Made by a program: the position numbers and the translations under genes
Notes under the pieces: generated by a model
The model's input: only the letters and a program-made list of their open reading frames with translations
Databases searched by the model: none
What the model was told of the DNA's origin: nothing
In this document: in pieces, positions 6,431 to 59,236 of the stretch
How the letters are laid out: every line of letters begins with the position of its first letter
How positions within the stretch are numbered: position 1 is the first letter of the stretch
Assembly: GCA_965197745.1 (NCBI GenBank)
Contig: CBDANS010000005.1
Location: 1 to 64,000 of the forward strand
DNA from: Opitutales bacterium
GTDB lineage: Bacteria; Verrucomicrobiota; Verrucomicrobiia; Opitutales; PNEW01
DNA length: 64,000 bases
Reading direction: 5' to 3'

Positions 6431-6507
6431 GGGGGATTAGCTCAGTTGGTTAGAGCGCTTGCATGACACGCAAGAGGTCGCTGGTTCGAATCCAGTATCT
6501 CCCACCA
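6431..6507 (+). tRNA. tRNA-Val (anticodon GAC)
   Basis: Cloverleaf; acceptor GGGGGAT/ATCTCCC, anticodon stem CTTGC-ATGACAC-GCAAG, GTTCGAAT T-loop, encoded CCA. Confidence 0.97.
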
Positions 6508-6564: not shown

Positions 6565-7794
6565 ATGGCAAAACAGAGATTTAAGATTACCAGGTTTATT
6601 AACCCTAGTGGCTCAGAAGCCTGGCGCTTATCCGGCACCTTAAATGGTAAGCAAATTCGGAAAAATTTCAAGTCCCGAAACGATGCTGTCGCCGAGCGTC
6701 AAAAGTTATCTATCCGTTATTTAAACGAACAATCCGAAGGGCAGACCGTTTGGACAACCCTGACCCACGGGCAGAACAAAGAGGCCATTTTAGCTATTAA
6801 TCGCCTCAACCAAGCCAAGTCCAATAAACCTCTCACCTTCGCTGTTAACTACTTTTTAGCACATTATAAAAAAGCTGCTGAGACAATGACTGTCGAAGAG
6901 GCTGTTCGAGAGTATTGCGATCATAAATACAAAGAATTAGAGCGCGGAATCATATCCTATCGCCAGAAGCACGCTATTGCCTTGGAGATGAAAAAGTTAA
7001 AGTACTATTTCGCAGGACGGATCGTTAATGAAATTCAAGCTGAAGAGCTTAATACTTACCTTGACACACGACACGGTCGCTCAAAAGCAACGCTCTCCCT
7101 TAAAAGTTGGAATAACTACCGTGGATACTTAAGTACATTTTTTAAGTACTGCATGTCGAAAAAATATGTGGGAGAAAACCCGATCCTGGAAGTTCCTCAG
7201 TATAAAATAAAGCAACGCAGGGGTACAGCGGAGATTCTCTCTGCTAATGAAGCAGCCGATCTGATGGAATGGCTGGAAACTTATAGTGGGAAGCAGAACA
7301 GGGACGGATCCTGGTGGGGCGTGCCCGGGTGCATGGTACCCTACTACTCATTATCCCTGTTTGCAGGAATCAGACCCGACTGGAAGCACGGTGAAATGAG
7401 TAAACTCAAACTCAAGCACATCCATACGGACACCGGGGTTATTCTTATCGAACCGGATGTCTCTAAAGTTAATGATAAACGTGCCATTAAAATCCAACCC
7501 AACTTAAGCCTCTGGCTGAAGAAGTATCCTCCTGCCCGCTACCCCATCATTCCAACAAGGAGGTTCAGAGACATGTGGGTCCATGTCCGTAAAGAGCGCA
7601 AGCTATCTCATAATGTCCTTCGTCATACCTATATTTCGATGACGGTGGGGTCCTTCCGTTCGGTGGGAGACGCCGCCCTTCAAGCGGGTAACTCTGAATC
7701 AGTGATCCGCAAATACTATCTCGACCTAGTGACTAAGGAGGAAGCGGATCACTTCTGGCAGATAGTCCCACTGAGCGATCAATTAGTTCGATAA
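6565..7794 (+). CDS. Tyrosine recombinase/integrase
   Basis: GIRP (catalytic R), HNVLRHT, GNS..IRKYY; directly downstream of tRNA. Confidence 0.92.
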   Translation: MAKQRFKITRFINPSGSEAWRLSGTLNGKQIRKNFKSRNDAVAERQKLSIRYLNEQSEGQTVWTTLTHGQNKEAILAINRLNQAKSNKPLTFAVNYFLAHYKKAAETMTVEEAVREYCDHKYKELERGIISYRQKHAIALEMKKLKYYFAGRIVNEIQAEELNTYLDTRHGRSKATLSLKSWNNYRGYLSTFFKYCMSKKYVGENPILEVPQYKIKQRRGTAEILSANEAADLMEWLETYSGKQNRDGSWWGVPGCMVPYYSLSLFAGIRPDWKHGEMSKLKLKHIHTDTGVILIEPDVSKVNDKRAIKIQPNLSLWLKKYPPARYPIIPTRRFRDMWVHVRKERKLSHNVLRHTYISMTVGSFRSVGDAALQAGNSESVIRKYYLDLVTKEEADHFWQIVPLSDQLVR

Positions 7795-48138: not shown

Positions 48139-48163
48139 GGTTCGAATCCAGTATCTCCCACCA
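48139..48163 (+). other. attR: duplicated 3' end of tRNA-Val(GAC)
   Basis: Identical to 6483-6507. Confidence 0.92.
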
Positions 48164-48289
48164 GCCTTCGCCCCCGCGGTGGCGGGACTGGCAGGCCAGC
48201 TATCAGCAATCGAAATCCATTAAATATTCAATCGCTCTATTGCCTGGGCGAAGGCTGCGCGCTGTAGTCCCGCGACTGCGGGACGGAGG
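48162..48289 (+). repeat. tRNA-3'-associated palindromic element (copy D)
   Basis: CAGCCTTCGCCC...GGGCGAAGGCTG inverted repeat followed by the GTCCCGCGACTGCGGGAC hairpin. Confidence 0.9.
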
Positions 48290-48313
48290 TGGAAATATCG
48301 ATAATGCTTATTT

Positions 48314-48931
48314 TTACCCGTTCGCTAGGGTGAGCAGGTCGCGGGTGCTCATAAAGGGTTTTGCTTTTTCAAGGAAGGTCTTAACGAGTTGATCAGGTGG
48401 CAAGTCGGAGGTGTCGATCTCCAGTTTCTGCTTAATCCAGGATTTTTGAACTTCTTCACGGAAACGTTCGAGGATCATCGGGATGTCATCTTTTTTGACT
48501 ATTGGATAATCATGAGGTTGAGCGTCCATGCGTGCCTCGATTACTTCCGGTCTGGCTGTAAAATGGACGAGAATACTATTATCGGGCATTTCCACCTCAA
48601 ATTGCCGAGAACCGTTTACCGGTAATCCTGGATAGTGATAGAGTGGGCCGTAGACTTCTTCTTCAATGTGAAATCCCCCTAATAATATATGGTCGATCAT
48701 ATTTATAAGGCGGACATGGTAAACAATCTGCATCTGCTGCCACCGCTGTTTAAGGGATGGGGACAGGGTCACTATGGTTGCTCGATCTTCAGGAGATAAG
48801 TGTTGACGATCGGGGATTGTAAAATGGTCATCGAGATGAAAATTAATTCCTCTGTCATTGCCCCATGCGATGAGACCATCACATAAAGTAGTCACACCTG
48901 TATATTCACATCCAACAGCAATAATTTTCAT
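48314..48931 (-). CDS. Hypothetical protein, nucleotide-kinase-like fold
   Basis: IIAVGCEYTGVTT degenerate P-loop, LVHFTARPEVIEARM, IDTS. Confidence 0.6.
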   Translation of the reverse strand: MKIIAVGCEYTGVTTLCDGLIAWGNDRGINFHLDDHFTIPDRQHLSPEDRATIVTLSPSLKQRWQQMQIVYHVRLINMIDHILLGGFHIEEEVYGPLYHYPGLPVNGSRQFEVEMPDNSILVHFTARPEVIEARMDAQPHDYPIVKKDDIPMILERFREEVQKSWIKQKLEIDTSDLPPDQLVKTFLEKAKPFMSTRDLLTLANG

Positions 48932-49290
48932 TATATTCTCCTCAGTATAGGTTAAAAGTTAAGTTTTCATTCATTGAAATGACAGGATTTGTCCTTGGCA
49001 AATAATTAATATCTCCTGTCATTTGGGGCTCAGAAAATCAGGGGTAAATCAAGGGGCATTGTAAATACGGCAATGTATTATTATGGGGATCACCCTAAGA
49101 TAGCTGAATTCCTTAAATTTTAGCTCATATAATAATAAATTAAACGAATATCAACGAAACATTGACATTCTAATCATTGTCTAAAATATGTGCCATACTC
49201 AAAAAATAGCATCACTTTAGATATTATTGTAATATTACTTACTGAACTAAGGTTAACCCTATATAGCTCAAGAGATTAAGCTTAATTATA

Positions 49291-49839
49291 ATGATGAAGA
49301 GCTGGATTTTATATAGTTCCATTTTATTAATCGCGGCAACGGCGTTTGGTGCAAAGAATGAGCGATATTCTAACCTTAAAGCGAGCGCCGATAAGGGGAA
49401 TGTCGAATCCCAATACCAGCTCGCCGTGATGTGCGAAAAAGGCGATGGCGTTACTCAAAGTTATATGAAAGCCATTAAATGGTACAAAAAAGCGGCTAAA
49501 CAGGGACACGCGCAGGCGCAGACAAATCTGGGCGTGATGTACGCTTCAGGCCAGGGGGTACTGGTCGATAATGTCGAGTCGATCAGGTGGACCACCCAGG
49601 CAGCGGAGCAGGGACACGCCCCAGCTCAATCCTATCTGGGATCCATGTATGCCGAAGGCTATGTGATTGAAAAAGATTATGTTAAAGCTTATATGTGGTT
49701 GAGAATTGCTTATTTATCCGGTGAAACGGATGTGGTTAGTGACATTGAAAAAATTAAAAGAAGTATGACTGCAGCCCAAATTGCCGAAGCTGATCGGAAT
49801 ATAAAATCCTGGCGAACGAAGCACAAAAAAAGCAGTTAA
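49291..49839 (+). CDS. Sel1-like repeat protein, secreted
   Basis: KWYKKAAKQGHAQAQTNLGVMY repeats. Confidence 0.92.
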   Translation: MMKSWILYSSILLIAATAFGAKNERYSNLKASADKGNVESQYQLAVMCEKGDGVTQSYMKAIKWYKKAAKQGHAQAQTNLGVMYASGQGVLVDNVESIRWTTQAAEQGHAPAQSYLGSMYAEGYVIEKDYVKAYMWLRIAYLSGETDVVSDIEKIKRSMTAAQIAEADRNIKSWRTKHKKSS

Positions 49840-50005
49840 GTTTGTAAGGGTTAAACAGGATTCAGGACAGAAATCGGGATCAGAAAATCTTAATGATAGA
49901 TTTTACATCATTCTCATAATCTTAACCGATAAACCGCTCAAACTATCAATCTGCTAAGACGGATTGTGCCCTTCCGGCAGTTACACCCCGAAACCTGCCT
50001 GGAGC

Positions 50006-50842
50006 TTATCGCTTAAATAATTCCCAACTGCGGCCGGACGATTCAGCGCGGAAACACTCAATATTTCCGCGATCTGCTACGGTCACATAGCAAGTCTGCC
50101 CATCTGCCCCACCAAATGCGATGTTGGTACATTCCTTGCCGGCGAGTTGAATCTCCTCAACGACTTCACCTTGTGGCGAAACTTTGGCTACCGTTCCTTT
50201 GCCATGACGTGTGACGTATATATTACCTTCGCTATCGCAGCGCATTCCGTCCATTCCAAAGTCAGAAAATTGAATCAACAACCGCTTGTTGCTGATTTCA
50301 CCTCCGGGTGAGAGGTCATATGCCCAGATATTACGCTGTACCGTCTCATTAACATAGAGAATACTTTCGTCCGGGCTTACCTCAATACCGTTCGTTGTCC
50401 CCATTGACGTTTCCAGCAATTTTACTTTCCCCTCATTATCTATACGCCATATCTGTCCCCAGGATTCACTCCAGTTAGGATCGCTGGCGTAGACAATATC
50501 ATTCGCTCCAATGGCAATATCATTGGGTTGATTCATATTCGGCTCATGCGCGTAAACTGATATCTCCCGCGTCACGCTATCAACTTTTAGAATGTTATGA
50601 TTTGTATAATCGGCAATTAGCATTTCACCTGCCTGATTAAAGCGGATACCGTTGCCGATGCTGCTGTCGGAAAGTTCGACGAAAATACTGCACTCACCCG
50701 TCGGTGTGACACACCCAATAGTATGCTCACGGGCATAGTTAACGGCATAGAGATTACCCTTGCAGTCACAGGCAGGTCCCTCAATACCGTGAGTAAATCC
50801 ATGGAGTGGAGTGAATGCTTTACTAACGTAATATTCGTTCAT
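50006..50842 (-). CDS. SMP-30/gluconolactonase family protein
   Basis: EGP, PND, NGIEVSPDE, DGMRCDSEGN, TNIAFGG. Confidence 0.9.
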   Translation of the reverse strand: MNEYYVSKAFTPLHGFTHGIEGPACDCKGNLYAVNYAREHTIGCVTPTGECSIFVELSDSSIGNGIRFNQAGEMLIADYTNHNILKVDSVTREISVYAHEPNMNQPNDIAIGANDIVYASDPNWSESWGQIWRIDNEGKVKLLETSMGTTNGIEVSPDESILYVNETVQRNIWAYDLSPGGEISNKRLLIQFSDFGMDGMRCDSEGNIYVTRHGKGTVAKVSPQGEVVEEIQLAGKECTNIAFGGADGQTCYVTVADRGNIECFRAESSGRSWELFKR

Positions 50843-51951
50843 CAGGCTACAAGTGAAGCACGGTTTAAGGATAGTTTGTCCAATGCTTCTGCTTTGGGTT
50901 CAGTGCCGATACCCGGATTCATGGTGGCTTGAAATTGAGAAGGAGCGGAATGCACCATTTCCGGTTCACCTAAATCGTCATGATAAAATCGGTCAGTAGG
51001 AAATATATCCGATGGATATTTCATGTTAGGCAGTGTCGCGAGAGCGACGCAATGGGCAGCGCCTACTGCCGACTCGAGCATACCGCCTATCCAGCAGGGA
51101 ATGTCAGCATCCAGACAAATTTTATTAATTGCTACAGCATTAGTAATTCCACCCACTCTACCGGGTTTTATATTAATCCATTGGCAAGCTCCACATTCAA
51201 TAGCCTGTCGCGCACTATTTGTTGAAACAATACTTTCGTCCAGACAGACTGGAGTTTTAATTTCTGCCTGCAGCTTGGCATGATCGAGCAAGTCGTCATG
51301 CATGAGCGGTTGTTCGATCATCGCGAGATTATAGTGATCCAGTTCTTTAAAGATATCGAGATCATCTAATGTATAGGCGCTGTTGCAATCGACATGAATG
51401 ATGGTATCGGGAAATTCTTTACGCACCGCTTCAATCATCCAGAGATCCCACCCGGGGCGAAATTTCAATTTCACGCGTTTGTATCCATGTCCCTGAGCAG
51501 AATGCATTTCCTGAAACAATTCATCGATCGTCTCCATGACACCTAAATCAGCCCCGGCCTCAATGGTCGCGTTCTTCCCGCCAATCATTTGCCAAAGAGG
51601 GATCCCTTGCATTTTCGCGTGCAAATCCCACCAGGCGAGATCAAATCCAGCTTTAGCAAAGTAATTTCCCTTTAATCCTGATAAATGGTGCTGAAGGTCG
51701 TCACCGGATTCTATCTCTTTTCCCAATAATAAGGGGGCCATGATATCACGGGAAATTAGAAATTGAGCGCTACAGCACTCAGGGGAATAAGCAGGTAATT
51801 TCCAGGGAGAGGATTCCCCCCAACCATAATGCTCCCCGGATGAAAGCCGGACAAAAACGGAATCGATGGTGTCGTTATTCCCAAAGGCTGTCCTGAAGGG
51901 GTAGATCAGAGGCATGGCGACATGCGCCATTTCAATCGCATCAATTTTCAT
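50842..51951 (-). CDS. menC: o-succinylbenzoate synthase / N-acylamino acid racemase (enolase superfamily)
   Basis: RVKLK, VDCNSAY, IEQP, CLDES, NIKPGRVGG, GGMLES. Confidence 0.8.
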   Translation of the reverse strand: MKIDAIEMAHVAMPLIYPFRTAFGNNDTIDSVFVRLSSGEHYGWGESSPWKLPAYSPECCSAQFLISRDIMAPLLLGKEIESGDDLQHHLSGLKGNYFAKAGFDLAWWDLHAKMQGIPLWQMIGGKNATIEAGADLGVMETIDELFQEMHSAQGHGYKRVKLKFRPGWDLWMIEAVRKEFPDTIIHVDCNSAYTLDDLDIFKELDHYNLAMIEQPLMHDDLLDHAKLQAEIKTPVCLDESIVSTNSARQAIECGACQWINIKPGRVGGITNAVAINKICLDADIPCWIGGMLESAVGAAHCVALATLPNMKYPSDIFPTDRFYHDDLGEPEMVHSAPSQFQATMNPGIGTEPKAEALDKLSLNRASLVA

Positions 51952-53162
51952 AGCGCAAAAATCTGGAGGCAGTGAAACAAAGAAATTTTCAAGCAATGGG
52001 CAGGATCAGGGAACGTCAGCCATGGCTTCAAGTTTCGCAAGAAGATCTTTCGCTTTCCTGCGTTTAGCCGGATCATATCCCATTTTTTCCAATAATATTG
52101 AAAGTCCTTAGTTGGCCAATCAGCATAGATATCCTCCCATTCAGCTAATCCCCCATGAGGGACCAGGGTTTTGGGCGAAATGGGATCGCTGACTTTTTGG
52201 TATCTGCCATCATTATCGCGTGCGATGATTCGTTGCAATGTGGAGACTGCTTGTGGATCACCATTTTCAGCCATCTCAAAAGCCATTACATCACGTTTAT
52301 GATGATAGCTATAGTCGTATTCCTTGATTTTCATATCCCATTTTTTCCAATAATATTGAAAGTCCTTAGTTGGCCAATCAGCATAGATATCCTCCCATTC
52401 AGCTAATCCCCCATGAGGGACCAGGGTTTTGGGCGAAATGGGATCGCTGACTTTTTGGTATCTGCCATCTAATGACAAGCGCAATTGGTCCGATTGGTTC
52501 GGCAAACCTTTATGCACGACCATACTGTGAAATATAAGGAGATCCGACTGTTTGAATGGGTTACTTACCCATGTGCCTTCGAGGGGATCAATTACCTCCA
52601 TTCCACCCGCGCCGAGCGAAGGGCGATGTTCATAAACTCCATGACGATGAGAACCCGACGCAATCTGAAGCCCACCCATTTTTTCCGGGATGTCAGACAA
52701 AGGTATCCACGCGGTATAAGTATCGGGACTGCCTTGAATGGGAATGAAATCCTGGTGCGCTGGTGTCGTAAAGGCATTCCGTTGAGGAAAGATCGTTCGG
52801 CCGATTACACTCGGGTGTAAGAAAACGGTGTCGTCTAAGAGTCTTTCAAATAAAGCGATTAATTCGGGACAGTGATAGATTGCTTGAAACTCCTGAAGTT
52901 TATACATTTGAAGATAAACTTCATTATACTTAGTTTCCGGCTCGACACAAAATCCATTGAGGTCGGCAATGGCCTGATCCAGTGGCGCGTCTTTTTTAAC
53001 CCACCCCGCATGGCGCGCAATTTCCAACAGTTTTAGTCTCAGGCTTTCGAGCTTGTTTGTAGGCATCAATCCGCGAATAAATAAATAACCGTCGCGCTCC
53101 ATGCGATTGCGCAGCTCAAGTCCATTATCAGCTACATCTGTAGAATCAAGAAATGGGTTCAT
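51948..53162 (-). CDS. Phytanoyl-CoA dioxygenase (PhyH) family protein with a 3' duplication altering the C-terminus
   Basis: TPAHQD, GSH, HKGLPN, RLSLD; 52073-52211 duplicates 52331-52469. Confidence 0.85.
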   Translation of the reverse strand: MNPFLDSTDVADNGLELRNRMERDGYLFIRGLMPTNKLESLRLKLLEIARHAGWVKKDAPLDQAIADLNGFCVEPETKYNEVYLQMYKLQEFQAIYHCPELIALFERLLDDTVFLHPSVIGRTIFPQRNAFTTPAHQDFIPIQGSPDTYTAWIPLSDIPEKMGGLQIASGSHRHGVYEHRPSLGAGGMEVIDPLEGTWVSNPFKQSDLLIFHSMVVHKGLPNQSDQLRLSLDGRYQKVSDPISPKTLVPHGGLAEWEDIYADWPTKDFQYYWKKWDMKIKEYDYSYHHKRDVMAFEMAENGDPQAVSTLQRIIARDNDGRYQKVSDPISPKTLVPHGGLAEWEDIYADWPTKDFQYYWKKWDMIRLNAGKRKIFLRNLKPWLTFPDPAHCLKISLFHCLQIFAL

Positions 53163-53263
53163 ATAGTATCGGATTTAGAGGTGATAGAGAAAATGTTCGC
53201 AGGACTGAATACTGTATCAATAATTCATGCTATGGTTCAAGTAAAGAAGCAAACATGCCGCTT

Positions 53264-55965
53264 TTAAGTGGATGATCCGAGCAGCCCTCTTGTCATTTGA
53301 AAATCGGTATTCCCATGCGAAAATAAAGTTGGAGTGAATTCTCTCGAGGCAACAGCAATGATAAGGTTCAGCAGAGCCTCCGCATTGCGCGTATGATTAT
53401 TATCGAATGTTAAATGGACATCTTCTGCAAACTGAGCATGAATTTCCTTTTTATCAGTAACTTGAATCACGGGAATCATGGGGTGCCCTTGCATAGGATG
53501 TTCTCCGATGCAAGCGACAATAATTTCAACACCGGTGCCACCCAAACCGGTTAAAGATTCCACCCAGTGATTCGTCGGGCATTCGAGAAGGTGAAAACCC
53601 GGGTTCTCAACTTTTTGCCCATAGGCGAGGGAAGGATTCAGCGGTTGATCGCTCAGAATCATTTCACGAAACGTATCATTTTTAATGAATGCAGCATTTT
53701 CAGGTACGACTACTGTGGATCCTGCTCCGACGAGATTTTGAATTAAATTGGCGACGCCCATTGCGGAATTTTCAGATACGGGACCCGAACTGAGAAATCC
53801 TATGCTCAATGCGTCCAGTCCGACCTGCTCATAAGCGAGTGAATTGTCAGATGATATTTTCGAGGTAAACCAGTCCTCCACTTTCTTTAATACATTTTCC
53901 ATACCGCCATCTAGTTGAATACTGGCCCAACCAAAATTATCACTGTCGAGATTGCGTTGATGGAGTGAGTGACGCATAAAATCGTTATGTGTTTTCTCGC
54001 ATCCATGTTCGAGTAAAAGTCCGAATTTAACGAAAGGGTGGGTGAGATAGCCAATCAGTGTTCTTTTGTAGAGGTTAATCGCAGATTCACCACCTAAACC
54101 ACAACCCTCGGTGTGGACGAGCGAGACAAATCGCGATAATCCTTTGTCGAAGCCAAACTGTTTTTTTGTTAACTGCACAGCGGCAATTTTGGCAATTTGC
54201 CCGGCGCAAAGACTGGTGGGGAGAATAAGACCAATATTATCGATGGTAAATCCATCTCCAGAGCGAATGCCGTTAAAATATGAGGGTGCCATTTTATCAT
54301 TTGTCCTGATGGGAATCGGCTTACCATCGGGTGAAGGACGATGAAGCAGTTGATCAAGATTACTTCCGTCCACTTGTTGCCAGTTTCTCCAGAAAGAAAC
54401 CTGGGAGTGTCCGGCTAATTCCCCTTTACTCAATCTTCCCGAGGCAATCTCCACGGTATAATTCAACATTTGACGTCCCAGTTCATCCATTGAGCTACCG
54501 TCCAGATAAGCTCCGGCATTTACATCCATTTCGTGTGACAAAAGTTCATAACGTTTGGTCGTGGTAATGATTTTTATGGTTGGGACAAATGGAAAATTAG
54601 TAATCGAACCATTGCCGGTGACGAAAAATATCATGTTGCAGCCCGAGGCGACTTGACCTGCGACACTTTCGAGATCATTGCCCGGGCTGTTCATAAAGTA
54701 ATAACCCGGAGCGTTCATCCTCTCACTGTAGTCTATAACTTCATCTAAACGGACATCCGGATGCAGTTTATTAGCGGCACCGATAGATTTTAGGTAAATA
54801 TTATAGAGCCCTCTCAACTTATTGCCTCCGGTGGTATTATCCTCTACCGAATTCCCGTGCCAGGAAGAGAATTCTTTGTATTTCTCAAGCATTTCAAGAA
54901 AACGTCGCGCGATTACCATGTCCTTTACATTTTTCAGGACATAGGATTCTGCTCCGATCAATTCCGGTGTTTCCGCCAGTTGAGCTGATCCTCCATATTG
55001 AATGATTTCACGCGCGACCCAGGCGGCGAGGGGGTTACCGGAGATTCCTGAAAAGGCGTCCGACCCTCCGCACTGAAGAGCAATTTTTAAATGTTCTGCC
55101 GATTCCTCGGTACGGGTAGTATCATTTACCTGGGGTAACCATGCCCGGATTATCGCTTCACCATTATCCAGGTTTTTCTGGAAGCTTCCCTTAATCGTTA
55201 AAAATTCATGGGCACTTCATGGAAAGGATAATTTTCTGATACCATATACTTTTCAAGCATCTGATTAGTGAGTGATTCAGTGCCGTAGTCGACAGCAAGG
55301 ACAGCGCCGACATTAGGGTGGACAATGAGACCCGCCAGGGTACGCAATAGAAGGTCGAGATTATTAGGGCGTGAAGGGGTGCCCCCTTCGGTGTGAGCGA
55401 CAGCGACTATCCTATCGATATTCTTAAACTTATCGGATAAACCATGCAAACGGTCAGCTAACTGTCGGGCATAGCTCGCAGAACGTGATGTCGTTCCCAG
55501 GATTACAATGTTGTTTCTTGTGCCTACACCTCTAGCATGAGATCGTCGGTAACCATGGAAAGTGAGTGATTGAGTGTGACGACTTATCTGAATGCCAGGT
55601 TTAAATTGGCTTTCGCTAAGAACGTAAGGAGCATCTTCATCCTTAAAATTGGGTTTCTCAGGAAGTTTTATACCGAGGTTTCTTATTTCAAGTTCTACAA
55701 GGATCTTTGCGTTACACACGTAATCGCCGGGGGCAAGATCCCTGGCCGCAATTCCAAAAGAGAGACCCCATGAAAGTAATGGCTCTCCCACGGCAATCTT
55801 TTCTACCGCAAAACGATGGCCGAGAAGAACAGAATATTCGAGGGAAAACGACTCACCCTTATGGGTAATTATGGATCCAGCTTCCAGATTTCTGGTAGCA
55901 ATCGCTACATTGTCTCCCGGCGATGGAAGCCGGGCTATTTTATGGAATTCAATTGATTGAGACAT
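53264..55965 (-). pseudogene. UxaA-family (altronate/galactarate dehydratase) protein with SAF domain, single frameshift near 55210
   Basis: DNVAIA, GVGTRN, QCGGSDAFSG, FVTGNG; one extra C gives continuous EVPHEFLTIKG. Confidence 0.85.
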
Positions 55966-56042
55966 GGGGAAGAAGAAATAATTAATCTATTTATTTAATA
56001 TATCCAATAGTGATCAATATAAGAAGCGATGTTTTTCCTGAA

Positions 56043-56071
56043 TTGACGCATCAGAAAGTATGCGGCATAAA
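56043..56071 (+). promoter_or_regulatory. Putative sigma70 promoter of tRNA-Val(CAC)
   Basis: TTGACG-17 bp-CATAAA. Confidence 0.4.
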
Positions 56072-56087
56072 TACCGTCCCATATTAT

Positions 56088-56164
56088 GGGGGATTAGCTC
56101 AGTTGGTTAGAGCGCTTGCTTCACACGCAAGAAGTCGGCAGTTCGAGTCTGCCATCTCCCACCA
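56088..56164 (+). tRNA. tRNA-Val (anticodon CAC)
   Basis: Cloverleaf; CTTGC-TTCACAC-GCAAG anticodon arm, GTTCGAGT T-loop, CCA. Confidence 0.96.
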
Positions 56165-56300
56165 GCCTTCGCCCCGTGGGCTACGGCTGGCAGGCCAGCT
56201 ATCAGTAATCGAGACTCAATAGAGCTTCAAACGTTCTATTGCCTGGGCGAAGGCTGCGCGCTGTAGTCCCGCGACTGCGGGACGGAGGCGGGCATTTCGT
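56163..56300 (+). repeat. tRNA-3'-associated palindromic element (copy A)
   Basis: Same layout as copy D; starts at the CA of the tRNA CCA. Confidence 0.92.
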
Positions 56301-56353
56301 GTAAAAATGGAGGGAAAATTTCATCTATGTTAGTTTTCAATATTCATCAACGC

Positions 56354-56483
56354 GCCCGTTGGGCTACGGCTGGCAAGCCAGCAATCAGCAGACGAACTCC
56401 ATTAAATATTCGATCGCTCCATTGCCTGGGCGAAGGCTGCGCGCTGTAGTCCCGTGACTGCGGGACGGAGGCGGGCATTTCGT
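56354..56483 (+). repeat. Palindromic element (copy B)
   Basis: GGGCTACGGCTGGCAAGCCAGC...ATTGCCTGGGCGAAGGCTG...GGACGGAGGCGGGCATTTCGT. Confidence 0.9.
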
Positions 56484-56610
56484 TTACATCGTAGCTTTAA
56501 TTTATCGAATTAATGCCGATCGTACAATTAGATCTGATTGGCGTCATAAATGATCTAGGATATAACTTTAAAGGATTTAATTTTCTATCGCTTATACGAA
56601 AACGAGATAT

Positions 56611-56859
56611 TTGTCTGTGACTTACATCTACATAATCGAAAGCATATATAATCGAAAACAGCATTATGTTGGTCTTACTGATGACTTAAAATCCCGTTTA
56701 CGCGATCATAATTCGGGTAAGTCGTCACACACCGCACGATTCAAACCATGGCACCTAGTTTGCTACTTCGCGTTTGCGGAAGAAAAGACAGCAAGAGTCT
56801 TTGAAAAGTATTTAAAATCCGGATCCGGTAAGTCGTTCTTGAAACGTCATTTCATTTAA
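56611..56859 (+). CDS. Small stand-alone GIY-YIG nuclease
   Basis: YIYIIES...HYVGLT..L..RL..HNSG...KPW...FEKYLKSG. Confidence 0.9.
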   Translation: MSVTYIYIIESIYNRKQHYVGLTDDLKSRLRDHNSGKSSHTARFKPWHLVCYFAFAEEKTARVFEKYLKSGSGKSFLKRHFI

Positions 56860-56952
56860 CTTCGCCCCCCGCGGTGGCGGGACTGGCAGGCCAGCAAACA
56901 GCAATCGAATCGCCATAGAACTTCAGGCACTCTATTGCCTGGGCGAAGGCTG
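56860..56952 (+). repeat. Palindromic element (copy C, lacks the second hairpin)
   Basis: CTTCGCCC...GGGCGAAG directly after the nuclease stop codon. Confidence 0.88.
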
Positions 56953-57003
56953 GCAGGTCGGCTATCTAACTAGCTATTCTAAATTCCCCGAAGGTGAGGC
57001 AAC

Positions 57004-57886
57004 TTAAAGTTTTTCCGGCGGTTCTTCAATATCTTCTTCGGGATTGGCACTTGGCACAGACACTCCCTTGGATTCCAGTTCGGCCGCGAGTTGCTCTAAT
57101 TCTGTCTCTCTTTCCTGCAGGCCTTGCGCCTTATCGAACAGCGTGTTTTCACTCGCTTCGAGAAAATCTTCCCGCTCCTTTACCATCGCTTCCATTTCCT
57201 GCATCGACTGTTCCCGGGCATCCAATTCCTCTTTTAACTTTAACAATTCGGGTTCTATATCCTTCGACATCTGTATATCGCTTGAAGCCCCTTCCTCACT
57301 TTGTTGACCTTCTTTTGCTTTCTCTAATTCGTCTCTGAGCTATTCCAGTTCAGTTTCTTTTTCCTGCAAACTCTGTGATTTATCCAGCAAAGTGTTTTCA
57401 CTTGTTTCCAAAAATTCCTCTTTTTCCTTTAAAGCATTTTCGCGCTCATCAAATTCAGCCTGAAGCTGCTGCAATGCCTTTTCCGTTCCCTCTTCCATTT
57501 TCCCTTCTTCCTGCATGCTGCTTTGTTGTGATCCAAGGAGCTTTTCTCGTGCCGTTAAAAGGGCCTGGGATTCTCGTAAATTCATCTCGCGGGCCAAGAG
57601 CAAAGCTTCATTCTCTTTCAATGTTCTTTCGCCATCTTCGAGGGCTGCTTGAGATTCCTGTAATGACCGCTCACGTTCATCCAAATGGACTTCTTTTTCC
57701 TGTAAAGATTTCTCCCGTTCGTCTATTTCAGTACGGAATTTTTCTTCATGACTCTCTTTGGATTGCTTTGTTCTGGAGAGGATGGAATCTATGCTCATTC
57801 CCCCCTGACTCTGAACAGCTCCGGGACTTCCCGCTTCTCCGGGACTTACCGCTTCTCCGGGACGTCTGAGGCTCAATTGAGGGTAT
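57004..57886 (-). pseudogene. Acidic coiled-coil protein, IS-truncated at 5', in-frame TAG at 57340-57342
   Basis: Two FLE.SENTL.DK.Q.LQE.ETELE repeats in one frame; 18-bp SPGEA tandem repeat near 57820-57863. Confidence 0.7.
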
Positions 57887-59236
57887 TGATTGGACCCCGT
57901 TTTTCGTACCAATTATTAAGTGAGAGAGTTCCCGGGTATTAATGGTTTTAGGATTGATGTATATGAGAGATCTTGGCGAAGTGAGGGCGTAGCCCGAACG
58001 CGGCCAAGATCTGAAAGGAATGTGACAAACTCTTGTGGGCTTTTAAAGCCTAAACGACTGTGGGGATGATCATGGTTATAGGTCTGGCGCCATTGTTCGA
58101 TTACAACTTGTGCTTCAGCCACGCTGAGCAACACTTCACGGTTCAAACACTCATCGCGTAAGCGGTTGTGAAACGACTCGATGAAACCGTTTTGCCAGGG
58201 ACTGCCCGGATCGATATATATCGCCTTGATCTTTTTGTCGGACAACGACTGCTGCACTTGATGAGCAATGAATGGCTTCGCATGTCGTCGCTTCGCTCCT
58301 CGGAACACTGCCGTTGTCACTACGGATATAGCTGGGAGCTCCCTCCTTTTCAATGGCCTCGCTAAGCACAGAGAGGACATCCGATGAGGGGAGTTCACGA
58401 GCGACCCGGATATCCAGACATTCACGCGTATATGTCTTCGCTTCGCTTGAGTGTCGTCGCTTTCAGCTCCTCGGTACATCGATCAGAGTCATCATCTTTA
58501 ATGGACCGCCATGGTCTGTGCGATCATGGACAAAGTCCCAGGACCAAAGGTGATTGCGACCGGTTGCTTTAGTAGGCGACCCCGTAGAGACCCCTTGACG
58601 GTGTCTACGCTTTTTAGGTGGCTTTACCTGCAACCCTTCTGAACGTCGTACCGCCTGAACAAACTTCCTGTTTGTTGTCCAGCCTTCCTTTACGAGCAAG
58701 GCACGGATGCGCCGGTAACCGTAGCAGGGATGTTCCCAGGACAGGGTTATAATCCGCTCGGCCAACCGCTGAGCTTTCTTACTGGCCTGCTTGGGCTGGT
58801 AGCTGAAAGTTGACCAACTGAGGCTGAGGTAGGAACAAGCCCTTCGCAACGAGCACAGCCCTCTCTCAGCCGCATCTTTTACTACTCGCTTCTTCTGCTT
58901 GGGGCTCACCACTTTTTTGACAGCGTTTCCTCCATTACCTGATTCTTAAGCATTTGATCAGCGAGCATCTTCTTCAACTCGGTGTTTTCTTTTTCCAGCT
59001 CTTTAAATCGCTTCGCATCGGCTAGTTCCAAATTGCCATACTTTTTACCCCAGCGATAGAAGGTCTGTTCACTCACGTTGTTGCCTCGGCAGATTTCCTC
59101 TACCGTTTTTCCGGTATCGGCTTGCCGCAGTATTGCGATGATCTGTTCTGTTGTGTATCTTTTTCTTTTCATGAGGTTATCTGTTTATCCCGATAACCTC
59201 TCTCTGTTAATGATACCATTTTTGGGGGTCACTCCA
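57887..59236 (-). mobile_element. IS3-family element copy 2 (orfA 58906-59172; orfB disrupted by two micro-insertions)
   Basis: Closely related to 24764-26192, same ends, inverted orientation. Confidence 0.92.

Follow-up and report, generated by a model that had tools for sequence, protein, structure and literature searches.

A hairpin repeat joined to tRNA 3' ends and paired with a small GIY-YIG nuclease gene in an Opitutales genome and across bacterial phyla

The genome of an Opitutales bacterium carries, behind its tRNA-Val(CAC) gene, a cassette of about 400 bp in which a palindromic repeat of about 130 bases, here called the leader, begins within the CCA end of the tRNA and is followed by the gene for a stand-alone GIY-YIG nuclease. 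An earlier note on this DNA had proposed a repeat-plus-nuclease system of this kind tied to tRNA 3' ends, and we find that the association holds genome-wide and across phyla. The features of the window, by which we mean the whole stretch of 64,000 nucleotides analysed, are collected in Table 1.

Table 1. Features of the cassette at tRNA-Val(CAC) and of the related site at tRNA-Val(GAC), in window coordinates.
Feature	Position	Strand	Remarks
tRNA-Val(GAC)	6431..6507	+	likely original anchor of leader D
Perfect 25-bp duplicate of tRNA-Val(GAC) 3' end	48139..48163	+	probable right island junction
Leader D	48161..48292	+	gene-less; behind displaced tRNA-Val(GAC) end
tRNA-Val(CAC)	56088..56164	+	anchor; CCA 56162-56164 doubles as foot of hairpin unit U1
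Leader A	56162..56300	+	starts in CCA of tRNA-Val(CAC), zero gap
Leader A, U1 hairpin	56162-56190		read on minus strand
Leader A, centre palindrome	56187-56198		
Leader A, 42-nt spacer	56200-56241		
Leader A, 3' arm of U2	56245-56256		
Leader A, U3 hairpin	56257-56291		plus strand
Leader B	56347..56487	+	tandem copy 183 nt on; 5' arm decayed
GIY-YIG gene, stand-alone, Slx1/UPF0213-like	56617..56859	+	probably 80 aa from GTG; frame open from TTG 56611
Leader C	56860..56952	+	begins at base after TAA; without first bases of 5' arm, without U3

The order given in the note, namely tRNA-Val(CAC), leader A without a gap, leader B, the nuclease gene and leader C after its stop codon, is present as described, and the 12-bp inverted repeat that was said to use the CA of the tRNA's CCA is perfect (56163-56174 / 56245-56256). 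Leaders A and B, offset by 183 nt, are 84% identical over 134 nt, and one A/B unit is absent from a contig of a public run, as a skip of 183 nt. The complete 5' arm is missing from leaders B and C. When folded, leader A scored better than 200 of 200 shuffles (z -3.46). Within the window, only the two tRNAs reached an Rfam gathering score and the leader had no match; no terminator-like site was found between tRNA-Val(CAC) and the GIY-YIG gene.

Comparison with related genomes revealed that the segment between the two tRNA-Val genes (window 48308-57800) is inverted relative to G001 (locus L131), and that the downstream neighbours of Val-CAC and Val-GAC are exchanged relative to G001-G003. One breakpoint coincides with leader C or falls close to it, and leaders may therefore mediate rearrangement. 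Elsewhere in the window, an IS3-like element (57916-59172) has a transposase frame broken near 58280-58300 and 58430-58480 by short hairpin-like inserts, and an ORF at 51948-53162 has a stretch of about 45 residues duplicated internally towards its C-terminal end, the corresponding DNA of G001 being single.

The leader can be resolved into copies of one hairpin, unit U, which consists of a stem, a 3x3 purine internal loop (GNA/GNA) and a variable tip. One such hairpin is formed by the reverse strand of 56162-56190 (z -3.5), where CCA/TGG makes up the foot and the internal loop is GTA/GAA; another of this type, on the plus strand, is formed by 56257-56291. Given these two folds, the leader reads as U1 (minus strand), a central palindrome, a U2 kept as its 3' arm, and U3; it is a REPIN-like head-to-head doublet plus a third copy. 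A strict parser applied to 134 anchored leaders detected a minus-strand U in 89 and a plus-strand U in 58, the loops being mostly GAA/GAA or GTA/GAA. The arms covary: in 13 of the 19 leaders whose first triplet is other than GCC, the partner arm is altered to match (six triplets). In addition, the tip stems of U1 contain 362 Watson-Crick pairs, with one G-T and three A-C pairs.

Two elements of the earlier description had to be modified. Between GCCAGC and CCTGGGCGAAGG, all four copies (A-D) do have a segment of exactly 42 nt, but this had been described as diverged, and 26-36 of the 42 bases are identical in pairwise comparisons, which makes it one homologous, diverging sequence. Since the spacer measures 42 nt at tRNA-Arg(CCG), 44 nt at tRNA-Arg(CCT) and anything between a few and about 45 nt in other phyla, its length is lineage-specific and was rejected as a fixed feature of the family. 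Similarly, the second hairpin (GTCCCG) is present in A, B and D, as noted, and absent from C, but it is the tip of a larger hairpin and has 72 copies in the genome, and was therefore rejected as specific to this system.

The left junction of the leader is exact, while its right end is variable, and the usual layout is tRNA, leader, gene. The suggestion that repeats flank the gene is borne out upstream, where a leader is usual, but a duplicate of at least 14 nt follows the gene at just 10 of the 78 homologue loci listed (0 of 73 in a control region), and is a tRNA end in two of those 10. A two-ended transposon layout was accordingly rejected as the rule. Tandem arrangements were also observed, with three leader-plus-gene units at locus L291 and four leaders at Arg-CCT in G001. 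In 5 of 59 loci with homologues, the CCA that precedes the junction forms 3-4 nt ahead of A76. The 3' arm extends into the tRNA beyond the CA by at least 5 nt in 4 of 100 leaders, three of them kin, and this count equals the shuffle maximum; a guide-like extension into the tRNA was thus rejected as a general rule, the cases being mostly of one lineage. In a few Verrucomicrobiota leaders (L003, L004, L078 and L028), the 3' arm runs on with bases complementary to the final 5-7 nt of the tRNA.

To map the family within the genome we used a covariance model built from six family copies, with a cut-off of E<=0.01. Each of the nine matches is located at a tRNA end or belongs to an array that follows one, so that the lack of tRNA association which the earlier note had allowed for did not occur. 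The sites are Val-CAC (three matches: A, B and C), the displaced Val-GAC end (D), Arg-CCG, Arg-CCT, Gly-CCC, Ala-GGC and Ala-CGC; the Gly-CCC copy is truncated at its 5' side, and in both Ala copies the two arms have changed together. A cross-phylum profile found one further array, of three units, at C5:435332 behind a perfect 25-bp duplicate of the tmRNA 3' end. The genome therefore has eight anchored sites in total, one with an intact gene.

Leader D adjoins the 25-bp copy of the tRNA-Val(GAC) end, and so is also tRNA-anchored. The intact tRNA-Val(GAC) and tmRNA genes are each followed by the near-identical start of another ORF, and leaders directly behind both genes are still present in relatives G001 and G002. 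These observations suggest that islands entered the tRNA-Val(GAC) and tmRNA genes, displacing older leaders. In the window, the probable island in tRNA-Val(GAC) spans 41.7 kb (6507-48163), with the 25-bp end duplicated at 48139-48163. Inside it, a 409-aa ORF (6565-7794) has no Pfam match and is presumably a tyrosine integrase, which it resembles by its motifs. ORF starts near-identical to that of the island also follow tRNA-Leu(CAG) and tmRNA.

Unit U also occurs alone and dispersed, with 74 common-loop copies in this genome, five of them within 1 kb of a tRNA, and 105 copies in all as compared with 26.5 in shuffles. Its 16-bp tip (TCCCGC-NNNN-GCGGGA, e.g. window 56267-56282) accounts for the 72 genome copies mentioned above; 9 of the 72 lie within 1 kb of a tRNA (shuffle mean 3), and the GTCCCG tip is also found inside CGTC-type repeats, having been swapped into the loops of several unrelated repeat families. 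A loose pattern run over 401 genomes failed to recover the copies of this genome, produced many chance matches and is informative for solo units only: of 30 loci from it, 8 were at tRNAs, six of those with the gene, and solo hairpins lay elsewhere without either. Anchoring to tRNAs is thus a property of the composite leader only, and not of the solo unit.

Other repeats occupy comparable positions. Directly behind the CCA of tRNA-Gln(CTG), Asn, Lys(CTT), Leu(CAA), Ala(TGC) and Ser(GCT/CGA) of this genome we observed further repeat families, in several cases with the last 14-20 nt of the tRNA repeated after them. Furthermore, tRNA-Ser(GGA) and tRNA-Ser(TGA) (C7:1460569 and C7:2027742) share an identical downstream flank of 170 nt.

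The ORF at 56611/56617-56859 matches the Pfam GIY-YIG family (E 1.6e-16). The earlier note had given the gene 82 aa; the assignment stands, but GTG at 56617, preferred because it aligns with the ATG of both orthologues, is probably the start codon in place of TTG at 56611, leaving 80 codons. The protein is a single GIY-YIG domain with the catalytic Tyr/Tyr/Arg/Glu, its best 150 representatives measure 78-166 aa, and Y7, Y19, G21, R29, H33 and E65 (numbered from the TTG) are at least 90% conserved in 69 sequences. NCBIfam yielded a sub-threshold match to a group I intron endonuclease only. A structure model (pLDDT 96.8) has UPF0213 and Slx1 as its first fold matches, and by sequence and fold together the protein is nearest to Slx1/UPF0213, rather than to UvrC or I-TevI. 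With dN/dS of about 0.23-0.35 (0.23 against both orthologues), the gene is, as judged from its sequence, under purifying selection. Its clade, which we take to be the one labelled cd10449 in CDD, comprises 4,230 clusters (50% identity) at E<=1e-10, sister clades included. Other small GIY-YIG clades (C7:1846143-1846500 in this genome; L093-L097 and L107-L109) are accompanied by duplicated stretches of tRNA-Met or tRNA-Asn, some of them in tandem, whose tRNA sequence is partly replaced by a CCCGC hairpin.

The association was then assessed outside this genome in two samples. The best 80 of at least 532 homologue loci, many of them kin (14 at Ala-GGC), come from at least eight phylum-level groups: Verrucomicrobiota, Pseudomonadota, Acidobacteriota, Planctomycetota, Patescibacteria, Dependentiae, Omnitrophota and others. 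Among these best 80, 61 have an intact tRNA or tmRNA within 450 nt upstream on the same strand, representing 23 anticodon types plus tmRNA, while four have a 3' tRNA fragment, three run off the contig and 12 are without a tRNA; an upstream tRNA on the opposite strand was found at none of the 80. The DNA that follows the CCA at homologue loci is the same element. An independent sample of at least 120 metagenome loci was gathered with a DNA pattern that omits the CCA itself; the pattern was derived from tRNA-anchored leaders, and its GGCTGG implies a CCA partner, though not a tRNA. CCA precedes 110 of the 120 loci listed, and 73 of the 120 sit directly on an intact tRNA or tmRNA (28 types including SeC, plus tmRNA), with a gap of zero in all 73. 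The other loci listed comprise 13 on a fragment of T-arm plus CCA, two later copies, one that is cut and 31 without a tRNA. The gene lies behind the leader at 22 of the 120 loci listed; among the 55 whose flank extends for at least 450 nt it does so at 10, so that gene-less copies outnumber those with the gene.

Gene and leader also co-occur by genome, a check that the earlier note had proposed. The gene is present in 12 of 61 genomes of the order, and the cross-phylum model matches in 9 of these 12 as against 6 of the 49 without it (Fisher p 5e-5, or 0.0015 without the genome's own family, kin not being independent); the absence of flanking repeats from orthologous genes, likewise allowed for in that note, did not occur either. 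Of the 21 model loci inspected outside this family, 16 lie on a tRNA or tmRNA end or fragment and five are unanchored. The tRNA-Val(CAC) site is filled in G001 and G002 and empty in G003, a genome that is 82% complete and in which the GIY-YIG gene was not found. The same tRNA is thus occupied in three genomes at 78% protein identity, and Ala-GGC is the tRNA at 14 of the 61 anchored homologue loci; such long residence implies that mobility is slow or past. Acidobacteriota homologues form one group but are located at Ile, Val, Arg and Ala tRNAs. Searches of IMG/VR, with both the protein and the DNA pattern, and of phage and plasmid records found no relatives, and hence no vehicle for spread; together with residence across 22% protein divergence, this indicates that movement is rare.

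The cassette would work like either of two published kinds of system but is a member of neither. The earlier note had drawn an analogy to REP repeats and their RAYT enzymes, which captures the design of repeat plus nuclease, but the published system most like ours is that of the Ssn family (SsnA, cd10448) and its NTS/SRM hairpin repeats, as presented in the main text of Chenal et al. 2025 (PMC11893778). According to that text, SsnA cuts a few bases upstream of its own repeat and ignores dsDNA and RNA. Both systems place a single-domain GIY-YIG protein of <100 aa beside its own hairpin repeats, with many gene-less copies and, in the main-text account of Ssn, a proposed mobile origin. However, the hairpin of our cassette differs, is fused exactly to the tRNA CCA and is mostly one-sided. 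The word 'tRNA' has no occurrence in the main text of PMC11893778, though its supplements may list tRNA neighbours or the present clade. The published SRM pattern lies within 500 nt of 1 of 80 homologues and was not found near our gene, a comparison tempered by the insensitivity of the pattern, which in its strict form matched only 1 of 7 Ssn-type loci. Moreover, GTCAT hairpins flank the Ssn-type loci, as seen by eye, and these have no tRNA, whereas the flanks of our gene are without GTCAT hairpins.

The protein likewise falls outside the Ssn-type clade in a quick tree of 122 rows and 82 columns, with support below 95, in which the Ssn side was represented by seven stand-ins, SsnA itself not among them: our protein belongs to a group of 102 rows (SH-aLRT 87), and the seven Ssn-type proteins stand apart (93). 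The label was assigned from GTCAT-hairpin flanks plus a C-terminal motif that we take to mark such proteins. Identity to them is 29-36%, compared with 49% to own-clade controls. Two intact Ssn-type genes and one broken one occur in the same genome (C7:1542004, C7:1545668 and C7:483652), each between inverted CGTC-type repeats of its own, and two nuclease-repeat pairs therefore coexist there.

REP, REPIN and BIME repeats with a RAYT gene (REPtrons), and the GTAG- and CGTC-tagged repeats of Di Nocera et al. 2013 (PMC3733652), resemble the leader, as far as the available text describes them, in having head-to-head hairpin dimers whose spacers are comparable in length and variable in sequence, in clustering in tandem and in lying next to the gene of a dedicated enzyme. 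Dispersed gene-less copies are a further likeness. Many of our units contain a GTAG-like tetramer that may correspond to the published tag; it is degenerate (GNAG, ATAG), being GTAG in part of the units, with GAAG, ATAG and GGAG common, and lies inside the internal loop, enclosed by an outer stem. The differences are that our enzyme is a hydrolytic GIY-YIG nuclease and not an HUH tyrosine transposase, the one Y1_Tnp match lying elsewhere, and that composite copies are tied to tRNA ends. In the available text of PMC3733652, GIY is not mentioned and the four mentions of tRNA concern tRNA enzymes. The protein itself has the minimal GIY-YIG domain, lacking a C-terminal Asn region, that is found in the Slx1-like/UPF0213 proteins (PDB 1ZG2, 1YWL), its best sequence and fold matches. 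A survey of the Dunin-Horkawicz type (PMC1564403) recorded prokaryotic Slx1-like proteins of the stand-alone kind and predicted that they act in repair; its available text gives no tRNA or repeat context for them.

Among mobile DNA more generally, integrative elements that target tRNA genes land at the tRNA 3' end, and free-standing GIY-YIG homing endonucleases have genes that spread by host repair. Our cassette differs in having no integrase, in showing no restored att duplication in most copies, in measuring about 400 bp, in using more than 28 tRNA types plus tmRNA and in having no DNA-binding domain appended. No published description of a tRNA-end GIY-YIG cassette was found in the freely accessible literature searched.

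The reading to which we give a slightly better than even chance is that leader and gene form a selfish DNA module: the nuclease would attach to the hairpin in its single-stranded form and nick the DNA, and host repair would paste a copy behind a tRNA end. The left junction is exact, the orientation is fixed and the arms covary; gene-less copies are in excess, units amplify in tandem, both filled and empty sites exist, one protein subgroup uses different tRNAs, and the enzyme is intact. Together these observations point to such a module at the DNA level. The tRNA promoter may drive the nuclease gene by read-through, in keeping with the lack of a terminator-like site. By analogy with SsnA, the nuclease would recognise unit U as its own repeat and nick single-stranded DNA near the hairpin. 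The target may be chosen by a feature common to all tRNA and tmRNA genes, the T-arm plus CCA, with the CCA/TGG pairing at the hairpin foot acting as microhomology; guide pairing in IS200/IS605 provides an analogy. Hydrolytic GIY-YIG enzymes perform no strand transfer, so host polymerase and ligase would complete the insertion. The leader-gene-leader layout would then arise from tandem duplication or from recombination between leaders, rather than from two defined ends. A bolder version, which we put forward tentatively as clearly less probable than not, would be an autonomous class of mobile DNA of about 400 bp in which an 80-residue GIY-YIG domain alone, without recombinase, transposase or reverse transcriptase, reads the single-stranded shape of T-arm and CCA while the hairpin foot guides base-exact insertion behind any tRNA, and which also seeds the solo repeats.

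Three other explanations have to be weighed against a selfish module. The leader might act as RNA, either as a pre-tRNA 3' trailer carrying a processing or termination signal or as a tRNA-primed RNA intermediate, with the nuclease gene as co-transcribed cargo. Its fixed orientation to the tRNA fits this, as does the absence of a terminator-like site before the gene, and when the transcript is folded as RNA the cloverleaf stays intact and the leader forms a separate domain (z -4.06). The near absence of G-U from the U1 tip stems (1 of 366 counted pairs) nevertheless leans, weakly, to DNA, the same purine-loop unit occurs on both strands, and the early CCA junctions (5 of 59) fit DNA microhomology better than priming by mature tRNA, though weakly, as slippage can remove one CCA; we consider an RNA role unlikely. 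We likewise see little probability in a once-mobile module that is now kept by the host, for instance to guard tRNA integration sites or to resolve secondary structure at highly transcribed genes. The dN/dS of 0.23-0.35, occupancy of the same tRNA in three genomes and an Slx1-like fold speak for it, Slx1 being described in the available text of PMC1564403 as a structure-specific repair nuclease in eukaryotes. But the gene is patchy (12 of 61 genomes of the order, and not found in G003, 82% complete) and always tied to the repeat, and islands have invaded two of the eight anchored sites here, displacing the leader.

We consider it similarly improbable that the leaders are plain REP-type repeats mobilised by a different enzyme, whether a Y1 transposase or the genome's own Ssn-type nucleases, with the GIY-YIG gene persisting behind tRNA promoters as a passenger. 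In favour of this, the genome has about 70 dispersed solo units, their tip module is common to CGTC-type repeats, two intact Ssn-type genes and one Y1_Tnp match are at hand, and leader matches occur in 6 of 49 genomes without the gene. However, the single Y1_Tnp gene has no U repeat in the flanks examined, the Ssn-type genes come with inverted TGTCATTGC repeats of their own and lack a tRNA, the GIY-YIG gene is found behind the leader in many phyla and tends to share genomes with it, and selection for safe sites is not expected to produce a base-exact fusion to the CCA.

The design of repeat plus small nuclease, shown for Ssn only in 2025, is extended here to a second large clade of unannotated GIY-YIG proteins, with a property that has not been reported for Ssn or REP systems, namely base-exact attachment to nearly any tRNA or tmRNA gene end. 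The leader provides a candidate cognate substrate for a family that has so far had a predicted repair role only, and the pairing suggests an explanation, open to experiment, of how short palindromic repeats that have no known transposase originate and spread. Such cassettes could supply very small sequence- or structure-specific single-strand nucleases, together with a universal safe landing site.
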